In this document: piece after piece, positions 1 through 8,380 of the stretch
Position numbering within the stretch: position 1 is the stretch's first letter
Layout: every line of letters begins with the position of its first letter
Source of the DNA: Candidatus Krumholzibacteriia bacterium
GTDB lineage: Bacteria; Krumholzibacteriota; Krumholzibacteriia; Krumholzibacteriales; Krumholzibacteriaceae
Reading direction: 5' to 3'
Length of the DNA: 64,000 nt
Assembly (NCBI GenBank): GCA_963836185.1
Contig: CAWIIQ010000001.1
Coordinates: forward strand, 32,001-96,000
Notes under the pieces: model-generated
Told to the model about the DNA's origin: nothing
What the model saw: only the letters and a program-made list of their open reading frames with translations
The model's database searches: none
Position numbers and translations under genes: made by a program

Positions 1-2705
1 TGATATACTTCACCGGGACGGTGAACAGCCCGTTCATGTTCCTTGTCGTCGTTCCGCTCTTCTTCGCGGGCAGGCTCCTTCCCGCGATGTCGGCCGGATT
101 CGCCGTTACATTCGTCACCATAGCGACGATAGCGACACTCGGCCTGCTCGAGCTCAAAGGGATCATCCCCCACAACTCGGTCCTCGGCGGAGCGTTCGCC
201 GGGCCGGCAGAATCGCATTACCTTATAGGGACGCTCCTGGTCGTCGGCGGATTCATGAGCCTGATGACATACCTGTTCGGTACATTCTACGATAACTTCC
301 AGGTCTATTTCCAGGACGCCGAGCAACGCCTGGACTCCTCGCGCAAGAGAATTCTCGAACTGACCCGCCTCTATGACATAAGCCTCGGGATCAACTCGGT
401 GATAAGCCTCGATACCCTGCTCAAGATGGTATGCAAGGAAGTCACACTTCTGCTGAGGCGTCCGTGGGCCGCCGTCGCCCTGATATCTCAGAAAAACGAA
501 GTCGTCAAGTTTATCGAGCTCGGGGCGGGGGATGCCTGCGCCGATGATCTGTGTGATAAGCTTGAAGATGATCCGCTGCTGCGCGAGATGATCGGCAGCG
601 AGGAGGGGCTCACGGTCGAGAACGCCTCACGTCACGAGACGCTGGGGAAATCACTCCTTATAAAGGAGAGGGGACTCAGGCCCATCCTTGCCGTGCCGGT
701 GATGTCCGGTCACGATTCTCAGGGCGTTCTGTTCGTAGGCGACCATGAGAATGAGCCGTTCAGCGACGAGGATATCAAGTTGATGGCGATACTCTCCGGC
801 CAGATCTCAACCGCCATCGAGAAGAGCCGGCTCTACGAGGTGATGACAGGAAGGATCCGCCGCCTGGAGCGTGAGAACGGGACGCTGGAGAACTCGAACA
901 AGCTGAAGATGGGATATATCTCTCACGTTTCGCACGAGCTCAAGACACCGCTTACATCTATAAAGGCATATGTCGAATCGCTGACCGAGAATATCAATGA
1001 CCCGGGATTCACCGAGGGGCAGGATTTCCTCGGCGTGATCTCGAACGAGACCGACAGGCTGATCCGGCTCGTTAACAAGGTCCTCGACATATCGAAGATC
1101 GAGTTCGGGCAGAGGACCCTGCGGCGAAGGCTGTTCGATATGCACGGTCTCGTGACCGAAGTCGATACTGCGCTGCAGCCGTATCTCTGCGACAAGAACC
1201 TTCGCCTGCTCATCGATTTCCCCGATTCCCTGCCGCTCGTGGATGGAGACGAGGACCTTGTCAAGCAGGTGCTGATCAACCTGATAGGAAACGCCGTGAA
1301 GTTCTCTTCTCCCGGCTCGAGGATATTCCTCGGAGCGGAGGAAGAGGCCGTCTCGATAAAGGTCACTATACGCGACGAGGGAGTCGGCATACCTGAAGAC
1401 GACCTGAAGAATATCTTCAAGCAGTTCTACCAGGTAGGCAGCGATTCATCCGAGGGAGTGGGCCTCGGGCTCGCGATCGTAAAGAACATAGTGGAGCAGC
1501 ACGGCGGGTACGTGAATGTCTCCAGCGAGATAAACGAGGGGAGCACGTTCACCTTCACGCTGCCGAAGGAACATCATTTCAACGATCTGCTCGGATATAT
1601 CTTCGATTCGATGGACGCTCGCGACGAGATCCAGGAGATGTTCCAGCTCGCCGTGAAGGTCGTAGCCGAGCTTCTGTCGGCGAAGATCGTATCGATGATG
1701 CTCCTCGACCGCGACCGCAAGGAACTCTTTATCAAGGTCGCATACGGCCTCGATGAGAGGATCGTGGAGAACGCCCGCGTGAAAGTGGGTATGAGTGTCG
1801 CCGGCCGCGTCGCGGAGACGGGAGAGCCCCTCCTTATAGAGGACATAGAGGATACCTCTCTCGCTTCGGTGAGATCTAACAATCCGCAGTATGAGACGAA
1901 GTCGCTGCTGAGCGTGCCGCTCATCGTCGGTTCGACGGTCATCGGCGTCATCAACGCGAATAACAAGACCTCGGGCAAGCCTTTCACCGAGGACGACATG
2001 GTCCTGATGCAGAGCATATCCGAGAGGATCTCAAAGGTCATCGAGCGCATGCGTACGGCGGAGGATTTCCACGCCTTCCTGCACGAGACGATCTCGTCGC
2101 TGAACTCGCTTCTCGAGATCTGCGAGGCCGACGAGGCCGGCATGCGCAACAGGATGGTCGAATGGGCGGTCAGGATCGCGAGGAAGCTCAGCCTGCCCGA
2201 AAAAGAGATACAGGTCATCCAGTTCGTCTCGAGCGTTCATGATGTGGGCATGACGACGATCAGCGACAACATACTCTCGAAGACGCTCGACCTGACACCG
2301 GACGAGATAGACGAGATACACAAGCACCCTCAGAGGGGCGCGACGATAATGAGGCCGCTGGAGTTCGTAGAGGCGGTAAGCCAGACGATGCTCTTCCATC
2401 ACGAGAAGCTGGACGGCACGGGATACCCGATGGGCCTGAAGGGCAACCAGATACCGATAGGCGCGAGGATCATCGCCGTGCTGGACGCGTGGGTCGCCAT
2501 GGTGAGCGAACGCCCGTTCAGGAGAAAGCTCGCTCTCGATGAATCGATCAACGAGCTCGTGGAAAACGCGGGGAAACAGTTCGACCGCGAAGTCATCGGC
2601 GCATTTATGGAAGTGCTCGTTGACGAGGGTCAGATAGAGATAGAGGAATACGCGGGGATAAGAGACAGGCTGAGATTCGGCGGCAGGCATCACGCCATGC
2701 CGTAG
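1..2705 (+). CDS. Membrane sensor hybrid: TM region-GAF-HisKA-HATPase_c-GAF-HD-GYP-like (5' truncated by window edge)
   Basis: Frame is open back to the window start (IYFTGTVNSPF). H-box SHELKTPLT, N-box NLIGNAVKF, G1 DEGVGIP, G2 GVGLGLAI; two GAF-like segments; C-terminal HDVG...HHEKLDGTGYP. Confidence 0.85.
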   Translation, partial: IYFTGTVNSPFMFLVVVPLFFAGRLLPAMSAGFAVTFVTIATIATLGLLELKGIIPHNSVLGGAFAGPAESHYLIGTLLVVGGFMSLMTYLFGTFYDNFQVYFQDAEQRLDSSRKRILELTRLYDISLGINSVISLDTLLKMVCKEVTLLLRRPWAAVALISQKNEVVKFIELGAGDACADDLCDKLEDDPLLREMIGSEEGLTVENASRHETLGKSLLIKERGLRPILAVPVMSGHDSQGVLFVGDHENEPFSDEDIKLMAILSGQISTAIEKSRLYEVMTGRIRRLERENGTLENSNKLKMGYISHVSHELKTPLTSIKAYVESLTENINDPGFTEGQDFLGVISNETDRLIRLVNKVLDISKIEFGQRTLRRRLFDMHGLVTEVDTALQPYLCDKNLRLLIDFPDSLPLVDGDEDLVKQVLINLIGNAVKFSSPGSRIFLGAEEEAVSIKVTIRDEGVGIPEDDLKNIFKQFYQVGSDSSEGVGLGLAIVKNIVEQHGGYVNVSSEINEGSTFTFTLPKEHHFNDLLGYIFDSMDARDEIQEMFQLAVKVVAELLSAKIVSMMLLDRDRKELFIKVAYGLDERIVENARVKVGMSVAGRVAETGEPLLIEDIEDTSLASVRSNNPQYETKSLLSVPLIVGSTVIGVINANNKTSGKPFTEDDMVLMQSISERISKVIERMRTAEDFHAFLHETISSLNSLLEICEADEAGMRNRMVEWAVRIARKLSLPEKEIQVIQFVSSVHDVGMTTISDNILSKTLDLTPDEIDEIHKHPQRGATIMRPLEFVEAVSQTMLFHHEKLDGTGYPMGLKGNQIPIGARIIAVLDAWVAMVSERPFRRKLALDESINELVENAGKQFDREVIGAFMEVLVDEGQIEIEEYAGIRDRLRFGGRHHAMP

Positions 2706-5700
2706 ATGGAGTATTCGATGCTCAGGACCGGTGCGGAACATATGTTTACAGGTGAGACCGGAGCGGTGACGTACCTTTTCGTCCTGCTTCTTCTCTCGCT
2801 CTCCTGCGTCTGCAGGGCTGTCTCGGCCCGCAGGGAAGGCGGAAGGAAGGAGCTCGGCGCGCTGTCGGCGGGGCTGCTGCTTTTCGTCGGTGCACGCGCC
2901 CTGGGCCTTTTCACGATGAGATCGGCAGGGGAGAATCTTTCGCTGTTCGCGGCAGTCGCCGGGCTGGCGGGACTCTACCTGATGATAACCTCGATAGTGT
3001 CCGGCCGGAGGAAAGGCGACTATTCTCCGCTGAGCAGAACGGTCCTGGGAGGAGGCCTTATCGCAGGAGCTGCCCTCGGAGGCGCGGCCCTCGTCCTCCT
3101 GCCTGATTCGGTCACCGGCCCCGCGGCGTTGAAGACAGGACATATATTCGCCGCCGCCGTCCCGGCGGGACTTATCACGGGAATGCTGATCGAGAAAGGG
3201 CGCAGGTCGGCTGGAGGCTGGTCCGCCGTACGTAGCGCGGGAGGGTTCTTCATAGGCTCTGCCGCTGCTGTTTTTCTCTCTGCCGCGGCCGTCGTCGCGA
3301 CCATAGGATGGGCCGGGTTCCCCGGAGGCGGGACATTCGTGCTCCAGCTGGGCGCGCTTCTCGACGTGGCGGGGATGTTCCTTTTCCTCGCCTGGCTGAC
3401 GCTCGAGCCGGCGGGCAGAAGGCAACCGGGAGCCATCGATGAGGCAGCGGCGGGCGATGCTCTGCCGGAGGATGCCGAAGAAGAGATCAGACCGGGACTG
3501 CGGGTCATGGAGATCAGCCGCGCCGTAGTCACGGGCCAGAGGGAGACAGAGGTCTACAGGGATATAGCGGCTTCGATCTGCGATGAGACAGGCGCGGACT
3601 TCGTCGTCGTGCGCGCTTCGAGTGAAGGCGACGAGAGATTCGAGGTAAAGGGATTCTCGGCGGAAGGCTATGAATCTGTTTCCCCCGCTTTTTCGCTGAG
3701 CCTTACAAGGGACCGGCTGGAAAGTCACAGCGGCATCGGGCGGGACGGCTCCAACGTGCTCGTCCTCGACGAGAAGGCCCTCGGTGAGGACAGGGAGGCG
3801 TTCGTGCCTTCGATGTTCCTCGACGTAAAGGGATCTGTCGCCGTGATGCCGGTCGGAGTGGCCGGCATGGAAAGAGCCGTGGTGATCGCCGGTTTCTTCC
3901 GCGACGGATTGCCTGCGGCCGTCCACGAAGTGTTCGAGGCTTACGGGATGAACATCATGCAGATCGTCGAGCGCGAAGTGTGGTCGGGAAGGACAAGAAA
4001 AAGGGAGAAGGACCTGGCGCTCTGCAAGGAGGAGCTCGAGAGTGTCAACCAGATGAAGAGCAATTTCCTCTCGATCGTATCGCACGAGCTCAGAACGCCG
4101 CTGACATCGGTAAAGGCATATACGGAGACGCTGATGGATAACGTCGAGTCTGTCGAGACCGACACCGTCCGCGATTTCCTGAAGGTGATGGGGGAGGAGA
4201 ACGACCGTGTCATCTCTCTCGTCGACAATATACTGAACTATTCATGCATGGAGAACGGGCACCTCAAGGTCGAGAAAGCGGAGTGCGATCTCGGCGAGCT
4301 GATAGAGGAGGTGCACGCCGGGCTGGAGAACAGGATGCTGACCGAGCGCGTCAACAGCGAGATCAAGCTGCCGCGGGGCAAGGTCGTCGTCGATGCCGAC
4401 AGGGAACTTATCCGGCAGATGCTCACCAACCTGATGAGTAACGCGATCAAGTTTACCCCTGAAGGCGGACGGGTCACCGTCGTTCTCGAAGAGGAAGCCT
4501 CCGCCGCGAGGATCGTCGTCCAGGATACGGGCAAGGGGATCCCGGAGGACCAGCTCGAAAAGATATTCGAGAGATTCCACCAGGTAGACGCGAGCGACAC
4601 GCGCGAGCATGGAGGCTCGGGCCTCGGGCTGGCTATATGCAAGAACATCGTTGAATGGCACGACGGCAGGATATGGGTCGAGAACGTCAAGGAGGCGGGA
4701 GCGAAGTTCACCGTGATGATCCCGATGAAGGATATCATAGTGCGGCACGCGATCTCGTCGGGATTCATCGGCTCGGTCCGGTTCGAGAGGGAGCGGTTCC
4801 TCACCCTTCTCGTCGAGATGCTGTCCGGGTTCCTGCAGGCGAGAAAATCTTCGATCATGCTCTTCGATCCGCGCGACCGCACGCTGCAGGTCGTAGCGGC
4901 CAAGGGGCTCGATCCCGAGTTCGTCCAGAATTCCCGTGTCGAGGTGGGAGACCGCATATCCGGAAAGGTATTCGCCGAGGAGGAAGCTCTCCATGTATTC
5001 GACATCGAGAACGATTCAAAGGTGTCGAGGAGCAACAACACGGCGTACTACTGGACGAAGTCGTTTATCTCGGTGCCGCTGCGCGACGGGAACGACGTCA
5101 TCGGCGTGCTCAACGTCGCCGATCACGTCGACAACAGGGGATTCACAGAGGCCGACCGCGAGATCCTCGAGTCTCTCGGGCCGGTCATCTCGGGGATGGT
5201 CAAGAAGCTCGATGCCTATGAGACAGTATCCTCGAATTTCGAGAAGCTCAAGGACGCCATGAAGAGCATCCTTCATATAAGGGAAGTCTGGGGCGCGAGA
5301 AACATGCTGAACTTCACGATAATCGCCATGTCGGTCGCGCGCAGGCTCAACCTGGACGAGAAATCGCTGACGGCGCTGAGGATGGGCATGAGCATGTACG
5401 ATCTCGGCATGATGAAGATCCCGAGGTCGCTGAGGGTCAAGAAGGAGAGCCTCACCGAGAAGGAATGGGACAAGCTCAGGGAGCATCCCGACCTCGGTTA
5501 CGCGCTCGTCTCTCCGATGGGGCTCGATGAGAGGATCATGAAGATGGTCCGCGGCCATCACGAGCATTTCGACGGCAGCGGCTATCCGGCCGGCCTGATG
5601 AAGGACGAGATACCGATCGAGGCGAGGATCCTCAACGTGGTCGATTCCTTCAGGGCGCTTATAACGCCGGGACCGTACCGCCGGTGCTTCTCGATAGACG

Positions 5701-5924
5701 AGGCTAAAAACGAGATCATTCAGGGCTCAGGCAAGAGATTCGACCCGAAGGTGGTCGGCGCGTTCGTGAAAGCGCTTCACGACCTTGGAGCCAGGGACGA
5801 TAGATGCGAGCTCGTCCTCGACGCGGTCGAGAGGGAGCTTGAAGAGAAAAAGCTGGAAAACGAAGAAACGACAGAAACAGAGACAACCGAAACAACACAG
5901 GAAACAGTCAAGGAAGGTGTTTGA
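2706..5924 (+). CDS. Paralogous membrane sensor hybrid: multi-TM-GAF-like-HisKA-HATPase_c-GAF-degenerate HD-GYP
   Basis: H-box SHELRTPLT, NLMSNAIKF, DTGKGIP, GGSGLGLAI; C-terminal YDLG...HHEHFDGSGYP; starts directly after the upstream TAG. Exact start uncertain. Confidence 0.85.
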   Translation: MEYSMLRTGAEHMFTGETGAVTYLFVLLLLSLSCVCRAVSARREGGRKELGALSAGLLLFVGARALGLFTMRSAGENLSLFAAVAGLAGLYLMITSIVSGRRKGDYSPLSRTVLGGGLIAGAALGGAALVLLPDSVTGPAALKTGHIFAAAVPAGLITGMLIEKGRRSAGGWSAVRSAGGFFIGSAAAVFLSAAAVVATIGWAGFPGGGTFVLQLGALLDVAGMFLFLAWLTLEPAGRRQPGAIDEAAAGDALPEDAEEEIRPGLRVMEISRAVVTGQRETEVYRDIAASICDETGADFVVVRASSEGDERFEVKGFSAEGYESVSPAFSLSLTRDRLESHSGIGRDGSNVLVLDEKALGEDREAFVPSMFLDVKGSVAVMPVGVAGMERAVVIAGFFRDGLPAAVHEVFEAYGMNIMQIVEREVWSGRTRKREKDLALCKEELESVNQMKSNFLSIVSHELRTPLTSVKAYTETLMDNVESVETDTVRDFLKVMGEENDRVISLVDNILNYSCMENGHLKVEKAECDLGELIEEVHAGLENRMLTERVNSEIKLPRGKVVVDADRELIRQMLTNLMSNAIKFTPEGGRVTVVLEEEASAARIVVQDTGKGIPEDQLEKIFERFHQVDASDTREHGGSGLGLAICKNIVEWHDGRIWVENVKEAGAKFTVMIPMKDIIVRHAISSGFIGSVRFERERFLTLLVEMLSGFLQARKSSIMLFDPRDRTLQVVAAKGLDPEFVQNSRVEVGDRISGKVFAEEEALHVFDIENDSKVSRSNNTAYYWTKSFISVPLRDGNDVIGVLNVADHVDNRGFTEADREILESLGPVISGMVKKLDAYETVSSNFEKLKDAMKSILHIREVWGARNMLNFTIIAMSVARRLNLDEKSLTALRMGMSMYDLGMMKIPRSLRVKKESLTEKEWDKLREHPDLGYALVSPMGLDERIMKMVRGHHEHFDGSGYPAGLMKDEIPIEARILNVVDSFRALITPGPYRRCFSIDEAKNEIIQGSGKRFDPKVVGAFVKALHDLGARDDRCELVLDAVERELEEKKLENEETTETETTETTQETVKEGV

Positions 5925-6301
5925 TGGCGAAGGGCAAGATACTCGTCGTAGACGATGAGGTTAACATCACGCAGATCCTCGAGTTCAGCATCGGGGCGGA
6001 AGGTTACGAGGTCGTGACAGCGGCGAACGGCGAAGAGGCGATAGACAAGGCTCGCCGCGAGCAGCCCGACCTGATCATCCTCGATGTCATGATGCCGAAG
6101 ATCGATGGGTACGAGGCATGCAGGATACTCAAGGCCAATCCCCTGACCAAGGGTATCCCTGTCGTCCTGCTGACCGCAAAGGGCAGGGACATCGACAAGA
6201 GGCTCGGCTACGAGGTGGGAGCCACCGACTACATCATCAAGCCGTTCAGCCCGAACAAGCTCGTGGACAGGATCCACCAGCTGCTGGTCGGCTCGAAATA
6301 G
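5924..6301 (+). CDS. Single-domain (CheY-like) response regulator receiver
   Basis: KILVVDDE, LDVMMP (phospho-Asp), LLTAK, KPF; ATG overlaps the upstream TGA. Confidence 0.93.
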   Translation: MAKGKILVVDDEVNITQILEFSIGAEGYEVVTAANGEEAIDKARREQPDLIILDVMMPKIDGYEACRILKANPLTKGIPVVLLTAKGRDIDKRLGYEVGATDYIIKPFSPNKLVDRIHQLLVGSK

Positions 6302-6370: not shown

Positions 6371-8380
6371 GTGATGACACCGCGCCGCGAAATACACGGC
6401 TTTGCCGAGATCGCGCTTCCCGTCCCCGTGGACGGGACTTTTACCTATATAGTGCCTGAAGAGATGCGGGAATCGATCGTTCCCGGGTGCCGCGTCATGG
6501 TGCCGTTCGGCCGCAGGAAGATGACCGGCTACGTGATCTCGACCCACATCGGATACTCCCGAAGGATTCAAGCTCAAGAAGATATCGACGCTGCTCGACG
6601 AGGAGCCGCTGATCACGCCCGCGCTCCTCGAACTCGCCCGCTGGATGGCCGAGTATTACGTCCACTCACCCGGCGAGGTCCTCAGGGCGATACTCCCCGC
6701 CTCGCTCAAGGGAAAGGGAAGGAAGAAACCTTCCGTCTCGAGCGATTCGATGTTTCCCGAGGACGAATTCCGCCCCGAGCTGACCGCCGAGCAGGAAAAG
6801 GCTTTCAACGCGATCACCGGTTCGGTCGAAAGGGAAGAGTTCGCGCGCTATCTCATCTTCGGAGTCACCGGCAGCGGCAAGACCGAGGTCTACCTCAGGT
6901 GCATCGAAGAGGTCCTGGCCAGCGGGGGGCGCGCGATCGTCCTGATCCCGGAGATATCGCTCGTGCCGCAGACGACGGCCAGGTTCCGCAGGAGGTTCGG
7001 GGAGAGGGTGGCGGTCATTCACAGCAGGCTGACCGGGCCGCAGCGGGCCTCGATCTGGAGGGACGCTGCCGCCGGCAGGGTGGATGTCGTCATCGGGGCG
7101 CGTTCGGCAGTCTTCGTCCCGCTCAAGGGCCTGCGGATGATCGTCGTCGACGAGGAGCAGGACTCGTCGTTCAAGCAGCAGGAGAAGCCACGGTACAGCG
7201 CGCTTGATGTGGCGGAGTTCAGGGCGCGCACGGAGAACGCCGTCATGGTCACCGGCTCGGCCACCCCTTCTCTCGAGTCGTGGCACAGGTCGTACGGCCC
7301 CGCGATAGATAGAGGTTCATCCTCCCCGACCGTCCCGGAGCGGGGGAGCTTCCGCCTGTCGAGATCATAGACATGCGCAAGAAACGCAGGGGGATCTCCG
7401 AAGATCTTCTCGATGCCCTCGATTCGTGCGTCTCCGCGGGGAGACAGGCGATAGTCCTGATAAACCGCAGGGGGTTCGCGAACTACCTCCAGTGCCCGAA
7501 GTGCGGATGGGTAGGAAGCTGTCCGAACTGCTCGATATCGCTCACCTGGCACAGCAGGGGAGGCAGGCTCGCGTGCCATTACTGCGGCTACAGCGGGAGC
7601 ACGCCGGAGAAATGCCCCGAATGCGGCTCGTACGGCTTCGTCCGCCTCGGCGGTGGGACGCAGAAGGTCGAATCGGACCTGGTCAACCTTCTTCCCGGCG
7701 TGAGGATCCTGAGGATGGATCTCGACACGACGGCAGGAACGAGCGGTCACTCCGATATTCTCGAGAAGTTCGCCGGGGGCGGGGCCGATATCCTTCTCGG
7801 GACACAGATGGTAGCCAAGGGGCATCACTACCCGAACGTCACCGTCGTGGGCATCCTTTCGGCCGATGCCGGCCTGAACTTCCCCGACTTCCGCGCGTCC
7901 GAGAGGACCTTCCAGCTCCTCTCCCAGGCGGCTGGAAGGACGGGCAGGGGCAGCGAGGGGGGAAAGGTCTACATCCAGACATATACGCCGGAGCATTATA
8001 TCTTCGATTTTATTGTAAGGCACGATTTCCCGGGTTTCGCCTCGGCGGAGATCGATTCAAGGGTCCAGTTCGACTATCCGCCGGCTGGCCGCCTGATCCT
8101 GCTGACGGTATCGGCAAAGACGCAGGGTGGGGCGATGGAGGGCGGCGAGGCGGCGGCGGAGGCAGCCGCGGCGTCGGGGGCAGTGCCCGAGCTGAGCATT
8201 CTCGGCCCGGTGCCCGCGATGATAGAGAGATTGAGGGGGATGTTCAGGGTCCAGCTCCTCGTCCGTGCCGGTATCGGGGCGCAGGAGAAACGGAAACTGG
8301 TCGATGCTGCCCGCGGCGCCCTGTCCGGGATGCGGGGGACCACACTGCAGTGGGACGTCGACCCTCTCGATATCTTCTGA
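6371..8380 (+). CDS. priA: Primosomal protein N' (PriA helicase), split by at least two apparent frameshifts (~6550, ~7300-7370)
   Basis: GCRVMVPFGRR N-terminus, GVTGSGKTEVY, DEEQDSSFKQ, SATPSLES, CxxC zinc motifs, GTQMVAKG, QAAGRTGR spread over ORFs 6371-7207, 6645-7370 and 7373-8380. Confidence 0.92.

Follow-up and report, generated by a model that had tools for sequence, protein, structure and literature searches.

A five-gene cluster encodes two histidine kinases with HD-GYP tails

We analysed a stretch of 64,000 nucleotides (hereafter the window) from the genome of a Candidatus Krumholzibacteriia bacterium (assembly GCA_963836185.1, contig CAWIIQ010000001.1, positions 32,001 to 96,000), at the 5′ end of which lie the genes of two membrane histidine kinases, HK1 and HK2, each ending in an HD-GYP domain with a consistently altered active site. 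The genome itself (G000; coordinates on its contig C1 are given for features outside the window) comprises 3.5 Mb on six contigs and is 92.5% complete. The two kinases belong to a cluster of five genes in the order REC-GGDEF, sensorless kinase, HK1, HK2 and REC (REC denoting a receiver domain), which is flanked by tsaD on its 5′ side and by priA on its 3′ side. The first genes of the cluster sit 5′ of the window, and the window starts within the HK1 gene.

The gene for REC-GGDEF, which carries a GGDDF motif (G000:C1:29886-30869, after tsaD), and that for the sensorless HisKA-HATPase kinase of 272 amino acids (C1:30907-31725) both lie upstream of the window and are jointly marked at its first two positions (1..2). 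This marker and all in-window cluster features described below are on the + strand. HK1, a protein of 997 amino acids, starts at G000:C1:31712, 288 nt 5′ of the window and overlapping the sensorless kinase gene, and its in-window part runs from 3 to 2705 (3..2705). HK2 (2706..5924), with 1072 amino acids, shares the domain order of HK1; its membrane region is unrelated and varies. REC (5924..6301) is a single-domain receiver of 125 amino acids in which Asp54, Thr84 and Lys106 were read from the sequence.

Pfam matches in HK1 comprise HisKA (residues 403-465), HATPase_c (512-620), two GAF stretches and HD_5 (800-961); those in HK2 comprise HisKA (450-518), HATPase_c (565-675), GAF (695-830) and HD_5 (852-1016). 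In HK1 the first GAF domain occupies approximately 354..845 by Pfam and profile comparison, the kinase core 918..1571, with the phospho-acceptor His408 at 933-935 and intact N, G1, F and G2 boxes, and the second GAF domain, directly after the HATPase domain, 1629..2048. The first GAF domain of HK2 (approximately 3483..3980) is divergent and was missed by Pfam, but profile-profile comparison aligned it to the first GAF domain of HK1 at 95.8% probability, against 0.9% for a HATPase control. It is followed by the kinase core (4053..4730, His460 at 4083-4085, boxes intact) and by the second GAF domain found by Pfam (4788..5195). HK1 and HK2 are 37% identical across 613 amino acids.

Both proteins have the hallmarks of HisKA kinases, namely the HisKA phospho-His, the N, G1, F and G2 boxes of HATPase_c and fold matches to HK853 and WalK. 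The H, N, G1, F and G2 boxes are conserved in 39-40/40 aligned HK1 rows, the single H-box gap being a truncated row, and in 40/40 HK2 rows. An E-x-x-T motif follows the phospho-His in 38/40 HK1 rows (another row has both the E and the T altered) and in 40/40 HK2 rows. The tails likewise show the features of the HD-GYP fold family: an HD_5/HD match, the HHE..GxGYP motif and a helical HD fold. An AlphaFold model of the kinase-GAF-HD-GYP part of HK1 (mean predicted local distance difference test score (pLDDT) 85.6, predicted template-modelling score (pTM) 0.79) matched kinase cores and PmGH, an active HD-GYP enzyme of Persephonella marina, separately. No solved structure among the chains listed for this model spans the full architecture, the query template-modelling score (TM-score) being 0.33 or less. 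NCBIfam yielded no family at its cut-off among the 25 best listed per protein, and an Atlas search with the kinase-to-tail region returned generic GAF kinases and one Krumholzibacteriota cluster, with no new family.

Much of this had been anticipated by an earlier reading of the window from its letters alone (the sequence-only reading). Pfam and profile comparison agree with its shared domain order of transmembrane region (TM)-GAF-HisKA-HATPase-GAF-HD-GYP, six transmembrane segments (6TM) leading in HK1; its H, N, G1 and G2 boxes are indeed intact; and both gene junctions are as it had them, with the TAG of HK1 directly followed by the ATG of HK2, and HK2 and REC overlapping by one base at TGA/ATG. 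It had also judged the architecture unusual, and we find neither a solved structure that spans it nor a description in the literature searched. Its coupling of the kinases to one stand-alone receiver needs qualification: REC is present, but so are, upstream of the window, a third kinase and REC-GGDEF, itself a receiver protein. Because REC-GGDEF heads the cluster, REC is not the only likely target.

The HD-GYP tails have lost residues essential in PmGH and kept five metal ligands

We describe the tails in PmGH numbering and give counts over 40 HK1 and 40 HK2 rows, from which two added Krumholzibacteriota loci, one truncated HK2 and the HK1 remnant of genome G015 were left out. The HK1 tail (2109..2621) keeps the equivalents of HD, H250, HH, GYP, D305, R314 and R317, and has Met at H189, Met at K225 and Val at D308. 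The HK2 tail (5259..5780) has YD for HD, Asn at H189, Met at K225, Arg at D308 and Gly at R314; the equivalents of D222, H250, HH, GYP, D305 and R317 are kept.

The same pattern runs through the alignment. H189 is present in 0/80 tails and so is K225, which is replaced by Met, Leu or Ile every time (by Met in 40/40 HK1). D308 survives in 2/80 tails, both among the HK1 rows, and is Arg in 31/40 HK2. The two kinases differ at H221, found in 40/40 HK1 versus 1/40 HK2, where Tyr replaces it in 39/40. The metal ligands D222, H250, H276, H277 and D305 are present in 80/80 tails, and Y285 with its GYP loop is kept in 79/80. R314 is Arg or Lys in 38/40 HK1 and Gly in 26/40 HK2, and the column of E185, the ligand of the third metal, lies in a poorly aligned loop and has Glu or Asp in 5/41 HK1 and 5/41 HK2. 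Set beside an active PmGH-type site, the tails retain the five ligands but lack the full pairs H189/H221 and K225/D308.

In PmGH itself, the substitutions H189A, H221A, K225A and D308A were reported to abolish activity or nearly so; H189 is a ligand of the H site, and what is proposed as the nucleophile forms a bridge between the M and H irons (PMC4159591). Since residues essential in PmGH are replaced throughout, with K225 and H189 lost in 80/80, an ordinary phosphodiesterase output is an unlikely role for the tails, and the phosphodiesterase function that the sequence-only reading assigned to HD-GYP domains finds no support here in that form. The same genome encodes four further HD-GYP domains, three of which keep H189, H221, K225 and D308.

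The altered tails are maintained. Over 10 same-genus pairs for each kinase, the ratio of nonsynonymous to synonymous substitution rates (dN/dS) was 0.14 and 0.08 for the tails versus 0.105 and 0.063 for the kinase cores, and purifying selection acts on the tails as it does on the kinase cores. Decaying relics are ruled out by the dN/dS of 0.08-0.14, and a misassembly or chance fusion by the recurrence of the fusion in 36/41 genomes.

A further comparison is offered by DvhD of Desulfovibrio vulgaris (PDB 9RBZ/9RC0), a degenerate HD-GYP protein reported to bind cyclic diguanylate (c-di-GMP) at ~100 nM without hydrolysing it, in a metal-free manner and with splaying of its stalk helices (PMC13090378). 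Of its seven canonical-site contacts, six are kept in most HK1 rows: the equivalents of L577 (40/40), Y621 (39), M646 (37), R650 (33 Arg and 5 Lys), an aromatic residue at Y652 (40/40) and R653 (38). The R650 equivalent is Gly in 26/40 HK2. The loss of the HD and HH ligands that characterises DvhD is not seen in the tails, where D222 and HH are present in 80/80.

Elsewhere in the genome, at G000:C1:908175-911589, a canonical REC-GAF-HD-GYP protein is abutted by a 617-amino-acid protein with a STAS-like start (our reading), a GAF domain and a degenerate HD-GYP domain, in which RD stands for HD, K225 is Met and D305 is Glu; the two form another tandem of a degenerate and an active HD-GYP domain.

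The cluster is conserved across Krumholzibacteriota

Relatives at 63-86% identity carry the label Candidatus Krumholzibacteriota, a phylum known here from metagenome-assembled genomes only. In a search of sequencing runs, no RNA run was listed as a carrier. HK1 was matched in 36/41 genomes, and in a wider set of 201 phylum genomes the kinase-to-tail query matched 183 at E 1e-70 or better (0/7 in family f5 and 6/12 in f7), while REC-GGDEF matched 191. Gene order was assessed in 32 loci: our own, two extra Krumholzibacteriota, and those of 29 relatives out of 35 with a match, the six on short contigs being left out. HK1 lies immediately 5′ of HK2 in 29/32 of these; in the remaining three, a receiver separates the two, a contig edge intervenes, or, in G015, there is only an HK1 remnant. 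REC-GGDEF is upstream in 29/32 loci and REC downstream in 30/32. The conservation of the pair, for which the sequence-only reading had asked a check, is evident from this linkage, and the tie that it had drawn between phosphorelay and c-di-GMP signalling stands at the level of the locus.

Another 20 stretches from 18 genomes, picked for divergence, were more varied. Nine have the order HK1-REC-HK2, two have small kinase-HK1-HK2, three (L072, L076, L089) have a single tailed kinase of either tail type, and in three more REC-GGDEF and REC occur with no tailed kinase found; of the other three, two are unrelated REC-GGDEF loci and one is the beginning of the G015 locus, separated from its remainder. 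HK1 and HK2 are at most one gene apart in 11/17 of the further tsaD-priA-type loci. Given these variants, REC-GGDEF and REC form the core, and the tailed kinases are usual, though not indispensable, inputs. In the single-contig genome G015 the cluster is split into two parts (L041, L082) ~1.3 Mb apart, with a 63-residue HK1 match beside an intact HK2, which may reflect natural loss of HK1 or an assembly artefact.

Kinase-fused HD-GYP domains probably share one origin

Among the scored candidates, 601 database matches reached E 1e-60 or better. The 150 best cluster representatives for the tail included 143 with an HD-GYP match, 24 of them kinase-fused and 119 unfused. K225 is kept in 0/24 kinase-fused versus 109/119 unfused domains, and H189 in 1/24 versus 112/119. 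In a tree of 112 rows, for which 59 of 114 unfused rows were dropped at random, the canonical and fused domains were split with a support of 0.97, one fused protein lying at the edge; the midpoint root fell inside the fused group, and monophyly was read from the unrooted split. The fused tails probably derive from one ancient event rather than 24.

The source labels of the fused relatives include Eisenbacteria, Nitrospirota and deltaproteobacterial metagenome-assembled genomes. Of 32 Nitrospirota-type proteins, 31 retain the H box, while the ATP-binding boxes are degenerate; the tails of these proteins keep the five metal ligands in 32/32, have YD or FD, and have lost H221 in 32/32. Such proteins may be pseudo-kinases, or proteins capable of phosphotransfer or phosphatase activity only. 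Two were seen in genomic context (L091:6929-9298 and L092:924-3188), both with the order GAF-HisKA-(degenerate HATPase)-GAF-HD-GYP and the same altered tail. Scanning metagenomes with the Nitrospirota-type alignment turned up 81 HD-GYP frames in 79 loci, and 2 of the frames were kinase-fused. This non-random sample serves as context only. From the Nitrospirota-type and other relatives it follows that the fusion is wider than the tandem pair.

REC-GGDEF and REC are candidate partners of the kinases

REC-GGDEF carries GGDDF in 43/44 rows in place of the GG(D/E)EF signature. Its phospho-Asp and the equivalents of D327, N335, D344, E370 and K442, in PleD numbering, are kept in 44/44 rows. A Hypr-type cyclic GMP-AMP (cGAMP) synthase is ruled out by Asp, not Ser, at the specificity position in 44/44. 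No RxxD was found at the I-site of our own REC-GGDEF sequence. Three GGDEF matches were obtained in the genome, and none to EAL or flagellin at its 92.5% completeness.

We compared the positions that set kinase-receiver specificity in EnvZ/OmpR work. Of 18 other kinase domains, HK2 was the most like HK1 and the small kinase came second; of 32 other receivers, REC-GGDEF was the second most like REC. Such a pattern fits a branched pathway. The closest receiver to REC is a second lone receiver at G000:C1:1564901-1567555, just after an HD-GYP gene; it may be the counterpart of the additional receiver that other families have between HK1 and HK2.

The membrane regions differ and can be lost

HK1 and HK2 have ~6 hydrophobic segments each, and the two regions do not align (0.2% in the profile-profile comparison), in keeping with the difference claimed by the sequence-only reading. 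The second half of the HK1 membrane domain (3..311) is weakly PilS-like: its match to PF25323 (E 0.0068, 16.6 bits) lies below the 27-bit Pfam cut-off. PF25323 appeared in the lists of 5 of the 7 HK1 segments shown, heading 4 of these lists, and in the Atlas the top clusters for similarity of the HK1 membrane domain were PilS-like (score 0.96). PilS itself is reported to sense pilin via six transmembrane segments (PMC6058289). HK1 resembles it in its six hydrophobic segments, in the weak PF25323 match and in belonging to a genome with a type IV pilus locus; it differs in falling under the family cut-off, in that the genome encodes its own PilS, above the PF25323 cut-off and beside pilR, and in that some HK1 relatives have no membrane domain. 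Pilin sensing by the PilS-like domain of HK1 is a weak lead.

By our reading of the frames, the type IVa pilus locus (G000:C1:1996000-2013400) contains pilB, pilT, pilC, pilS, pilR, a pilin gene, an ATP-binding cassette (ABC) transporter, pilD and pilMNOPQ, with pilS spread over two frames. The RLG c-di-GMP motif is seemingly absent from the MshEN domain of PilB in this locus. HK2 has no membrane region in several lineages (L036, L067, L087 and others), and HK1 has no membrane domain in some genomes of family f4. The absence of membrane regions from some lineages implies that inputs are swapped or lost while the core and tail persist.

Genes downstream of the cluster

The genes 3′ of the cluster are priA, a tetratricopeptide repeat (TPR) protein gene and rho. 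At 6371-8380 of the window priA is read as three overlapping frames, whereas its relatives have one frame of ~670 amino acids, and the split is likely due to frameshift errors in the assembly. Between 8610 and 13808 there follow genes for a TPR lipoprotein-like protein, rho, rpmE, a conserved membrane protein and prfA; the prmC, murA and selB regions after prfA likewise look broken into frames.

Relation to known systems

The tails share with PmGH (PDB 4MCW/4MDZ) the unit of GAF, long helix and HD-GYP, with a sequence match at E 1.5e-21, a fold match over 350 columns and the residues D222, H250, H276, H277, Y285 and D305 in common. PmGH, however, is a stand-alone active enzyme, whereas the tails sit on kinases and are without H189, K225 and D308 (in HK2 also H221). 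With DvhD (E 2.8e-20) they have in common a non-canonical C-terminal HD-GYP domain in a membrane signalling protein with a helical stalk, and most canonical-site contacts in HK1. DvhD has lost its metal ligands (SQ, MN) and controls a periplasmic protease; the tails keep five ligands, sit on a kinase, and their binding of c-di-GMP is a prediction.

c-di-GMP is a direct input of histidine kinases in CckA, ShkA and RavS, but there it is bound via the kinase core or a pseudo-receiver, reportedly so for CckA, and not via an appended HD-GYP domain. RpfG (REC-HD-GYP) also ties two-component signalling to an HD-GYP domain, and in Xanthomonas RpfG is likewise described as being without H189; it is a downstream response regulator, whereas here the kinase itself carries the HD-GYP domain, which has also lost K225. 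The Myxococcus xanthus proteins SgmT and TmoK are histidine kinases with a catalytically inactive c-di-GMP-enzyme domain, and the inactive GGDEF tail of SgmT is reported to bind c-di-GMP (PMC4686200). They differ from HK1 and HK2 in being hybrid kinases with a GGDEF module; binding by SgmT is reported to control localisation, and TmoK is non-binding.

A kinase-HD-GYP fusion is not described in the full-text literature searched, a scope outside which most subscription papers fall. None is mentioned in the text of the Galperin and Chou survey of HD-GYP domains (bioRxiv 2021.11.05.467447, Table 3 and supplements being outside this scope), nor in the accessible portions of PMC9239204, PMC9756655, PMC6205966 and PMC8177086. 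Degenerate HD-GYP receptors and c-di-GMP-controlled kinases have each been described, but the literature searched did not yield the two combined.

Proposed function of the tails and alternatives

We give about an even chance to the reading that the HD-GYP tails are non-hydrolysing c-di-GMP-sensing domains regulating kinases that act on REC-GGDEF and REC, and we rank it above the three alternatives weighed below. It is favoured because of the binding reported for DvhD, the uncleaved c-di-GMP with which PmGH crystallised when one iron remained (PMC4159591), the precedent of SgmT and the contacts kept in HK1. HK1 and HK2 would be bifunctional kinases, as the E-x-x-T after the histidine suggests, and all three kinases of the cluster would converge on REC-GGDEF and on REC, the latter serving as a phosphate sink or a separate output. 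Phosphorylated REC-GGDEF, a likely c-di-GMP synthase, would make c-di-GMP; the tail would bind it, probably on a reduced metal site, and once bound the nucleotide would displace the connection between ATP-binding domain and tail, formed by the stalk helix and the GAF domain, tilting the balance between kinase and phosphatase. If the tails sense c-di-GMP and the kinases act on the cyclase, a feedback loop would close.

A number of observations weigh against this proposal. The residue that is Gly in 26/40 HK2, R314, is the guanine-binding one (that the Arg at D308 in 31/40 HK2 compensates for it is a guess), and the equivalent of K582, the seventh DvhD contact, is kept in neither kinase. For metal-free binding of the DvhD type the five metal ligands are superfluous, and residual catalysis or metal sensing would fit them equally well. 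The loss of H189, and probably of E185, in HK1 resembles Xanthomonas RpfG, and the very similar Lysobacter RpfG is reported to be active (bioRxiv 2021.11.05.467447), while the degenerate domain on the kinase TmoK is reported to bind no c-di-GMP (PMC4686200). Both Nitrospirota-type forms seen in context (2/2) are solo, with no GGDEF neighbour, and three of the divergent stretches have REC-GGDEF and REC where no tailed kinase was found. In REC-GGDEF, His replaces the usual Arg before the motif in 44/44, and of the cyclases with GGDDF one was reported active and one inactive (PMC8835794). The likeness at specificity positions may just reflect paralogy, and the counts for fused tails are not independent, since these tails likely share one origin.

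The tails might instead bind no nucleotide and act as protein-interaction or dimerisation modules, for instance docking on REC-GGDEF or inhibiting another c-di-GMP enzyme, by analogy with inactive RpfG-family proteins such as HnoD. The GYP loop kept in 79/80 tails and the mostly missing R314 of HK2 speak for docking, as do the reports that inactive HD-GYP proteins act via protein contacts (bioRxiv 2021.11.05.467447) and that TmoK carries a non-binding degenerate domain on a kinase (PMC4686200). Yet the guanine-side residues of DvhD and PmGH are kept in HK1, loci in which no tailed kinase was found conserve REC-GGDEF to the same degree, and five invariant metal ligands would exceed the needs of a docking surface; we consider docking distinctly unlikely. 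Rated lower again is the alternative nearest to the idea of the sequence-only reading, that the HK1 tail, perhaps also that of HK2, is a slow two-metal phosphodiesterase, so that the kinase would activate the cyclase and trim c-di-GMP locally. Six of the eight PmGH metal ligands (H221, D222, H250, H276, H277 and D305) are present in 40/40 HK1, together with equivalents of R314 and K317; the authors of the PmGH study expect a binuclear centre in RpfG, which is without E185 and H189 (PMC4159591), and the activity reported for Lysobacter RpfG (bioRxiv 2021.11.05.467447) points the same way. Set against these are the replacement of K225, essential in PmGH, by Met in 40/40 HK1, the survival of D308 in 2/40, the additional loss of H221 in HK2 (39/40) and in the Nitrospirota-type proteins (32/32), and the three canonical HD-GYP enzymes that the genome already has.

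Lowest in our ranking is a tail that senses metal, oxygen or redox state, with the occupancy or oxidation state of an Fe/Mn site controlling the kinase and the nucleotide secondary or absent. It would account for ligands D222, H250, H276, H277 and D305 that are invariant (80/80, and 32/32 in the Nitrospirota-type) beside a variable R314, and oxidation of the iron centre is reported to inactivate active HD-GYP enzymes (bioRxiv 2021.11.05.467447); but the nucleotide contacts Y285 and the K317 equivalent are kept as well, the core of the cluster is a cyclase-like gene, and no precedent was found in the literature examined. A separate question, compatible with any tail function, is whether HK1 and HK2 work mainly as a heterodimer that pairs an HD/R314 tail with a YD/R308 tail. 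Their adjacency in 29/32 loci, their separation by at most one gene in 11/17 further loci, the abutting genes and the fixed, differing substitutions in the two tails would suit such a partnership. Each kinase, though, has complete catalytic motifs and would need no partner, Nitrospirota-type forms are solo, and an obligate heterodimer is doubtful because there are loci with a single tailed kinase of either type (L072, L076, L089) and because G015 has HK2 beside a mere 63-residue HK1 remnant; overall we regard a mainly heterodimeric pair as unlikely.

The proposal of c-di-GMP-sensing tails can be extended, more speculatively and with the balance of our judgement against it, to a phylum-wide class of kinases in which a metal-retaining, non-hydrolysing HD-GYP domain would follow the ATP-binding domain and switch the kinase allosterically in response to c-di-GMP. 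A pair of such kinases, their tails complementary (HD/Arg314 and YD/Arg308), would control in a closed loop how far their own cyclase is phosphorylated, HK1 would contribute a PilS-like pilin input, and the same tail would occur on ATPase-dead pseudo-kinases of Nitrospirota.

Implications

HD-GYP domains are annotated as phosphodiesterases, and a degenerate one, DvhD, was shown structurally to be a receptor just recently. The fixed residue pattern described here puts right the annotation of several hundred database proteins as phosphodiesterases, and its elements (K225 replaced by a hydrophobic residue, H189 lost, five ligands kept) amount to a natural experiment on the residues for hydrolysis versus binding. 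Genetics is limited in a host phylum known here from metagenome-assembled genomes only. If the tails bind c-di-GMP, the cluster would be a compact circuit of kinases, cyclase, sensor and phosphate sink that could be rebuilt in vitro from five soluble fragments, and the tails would provide a new route by which the messenger controls a histidine kinase.

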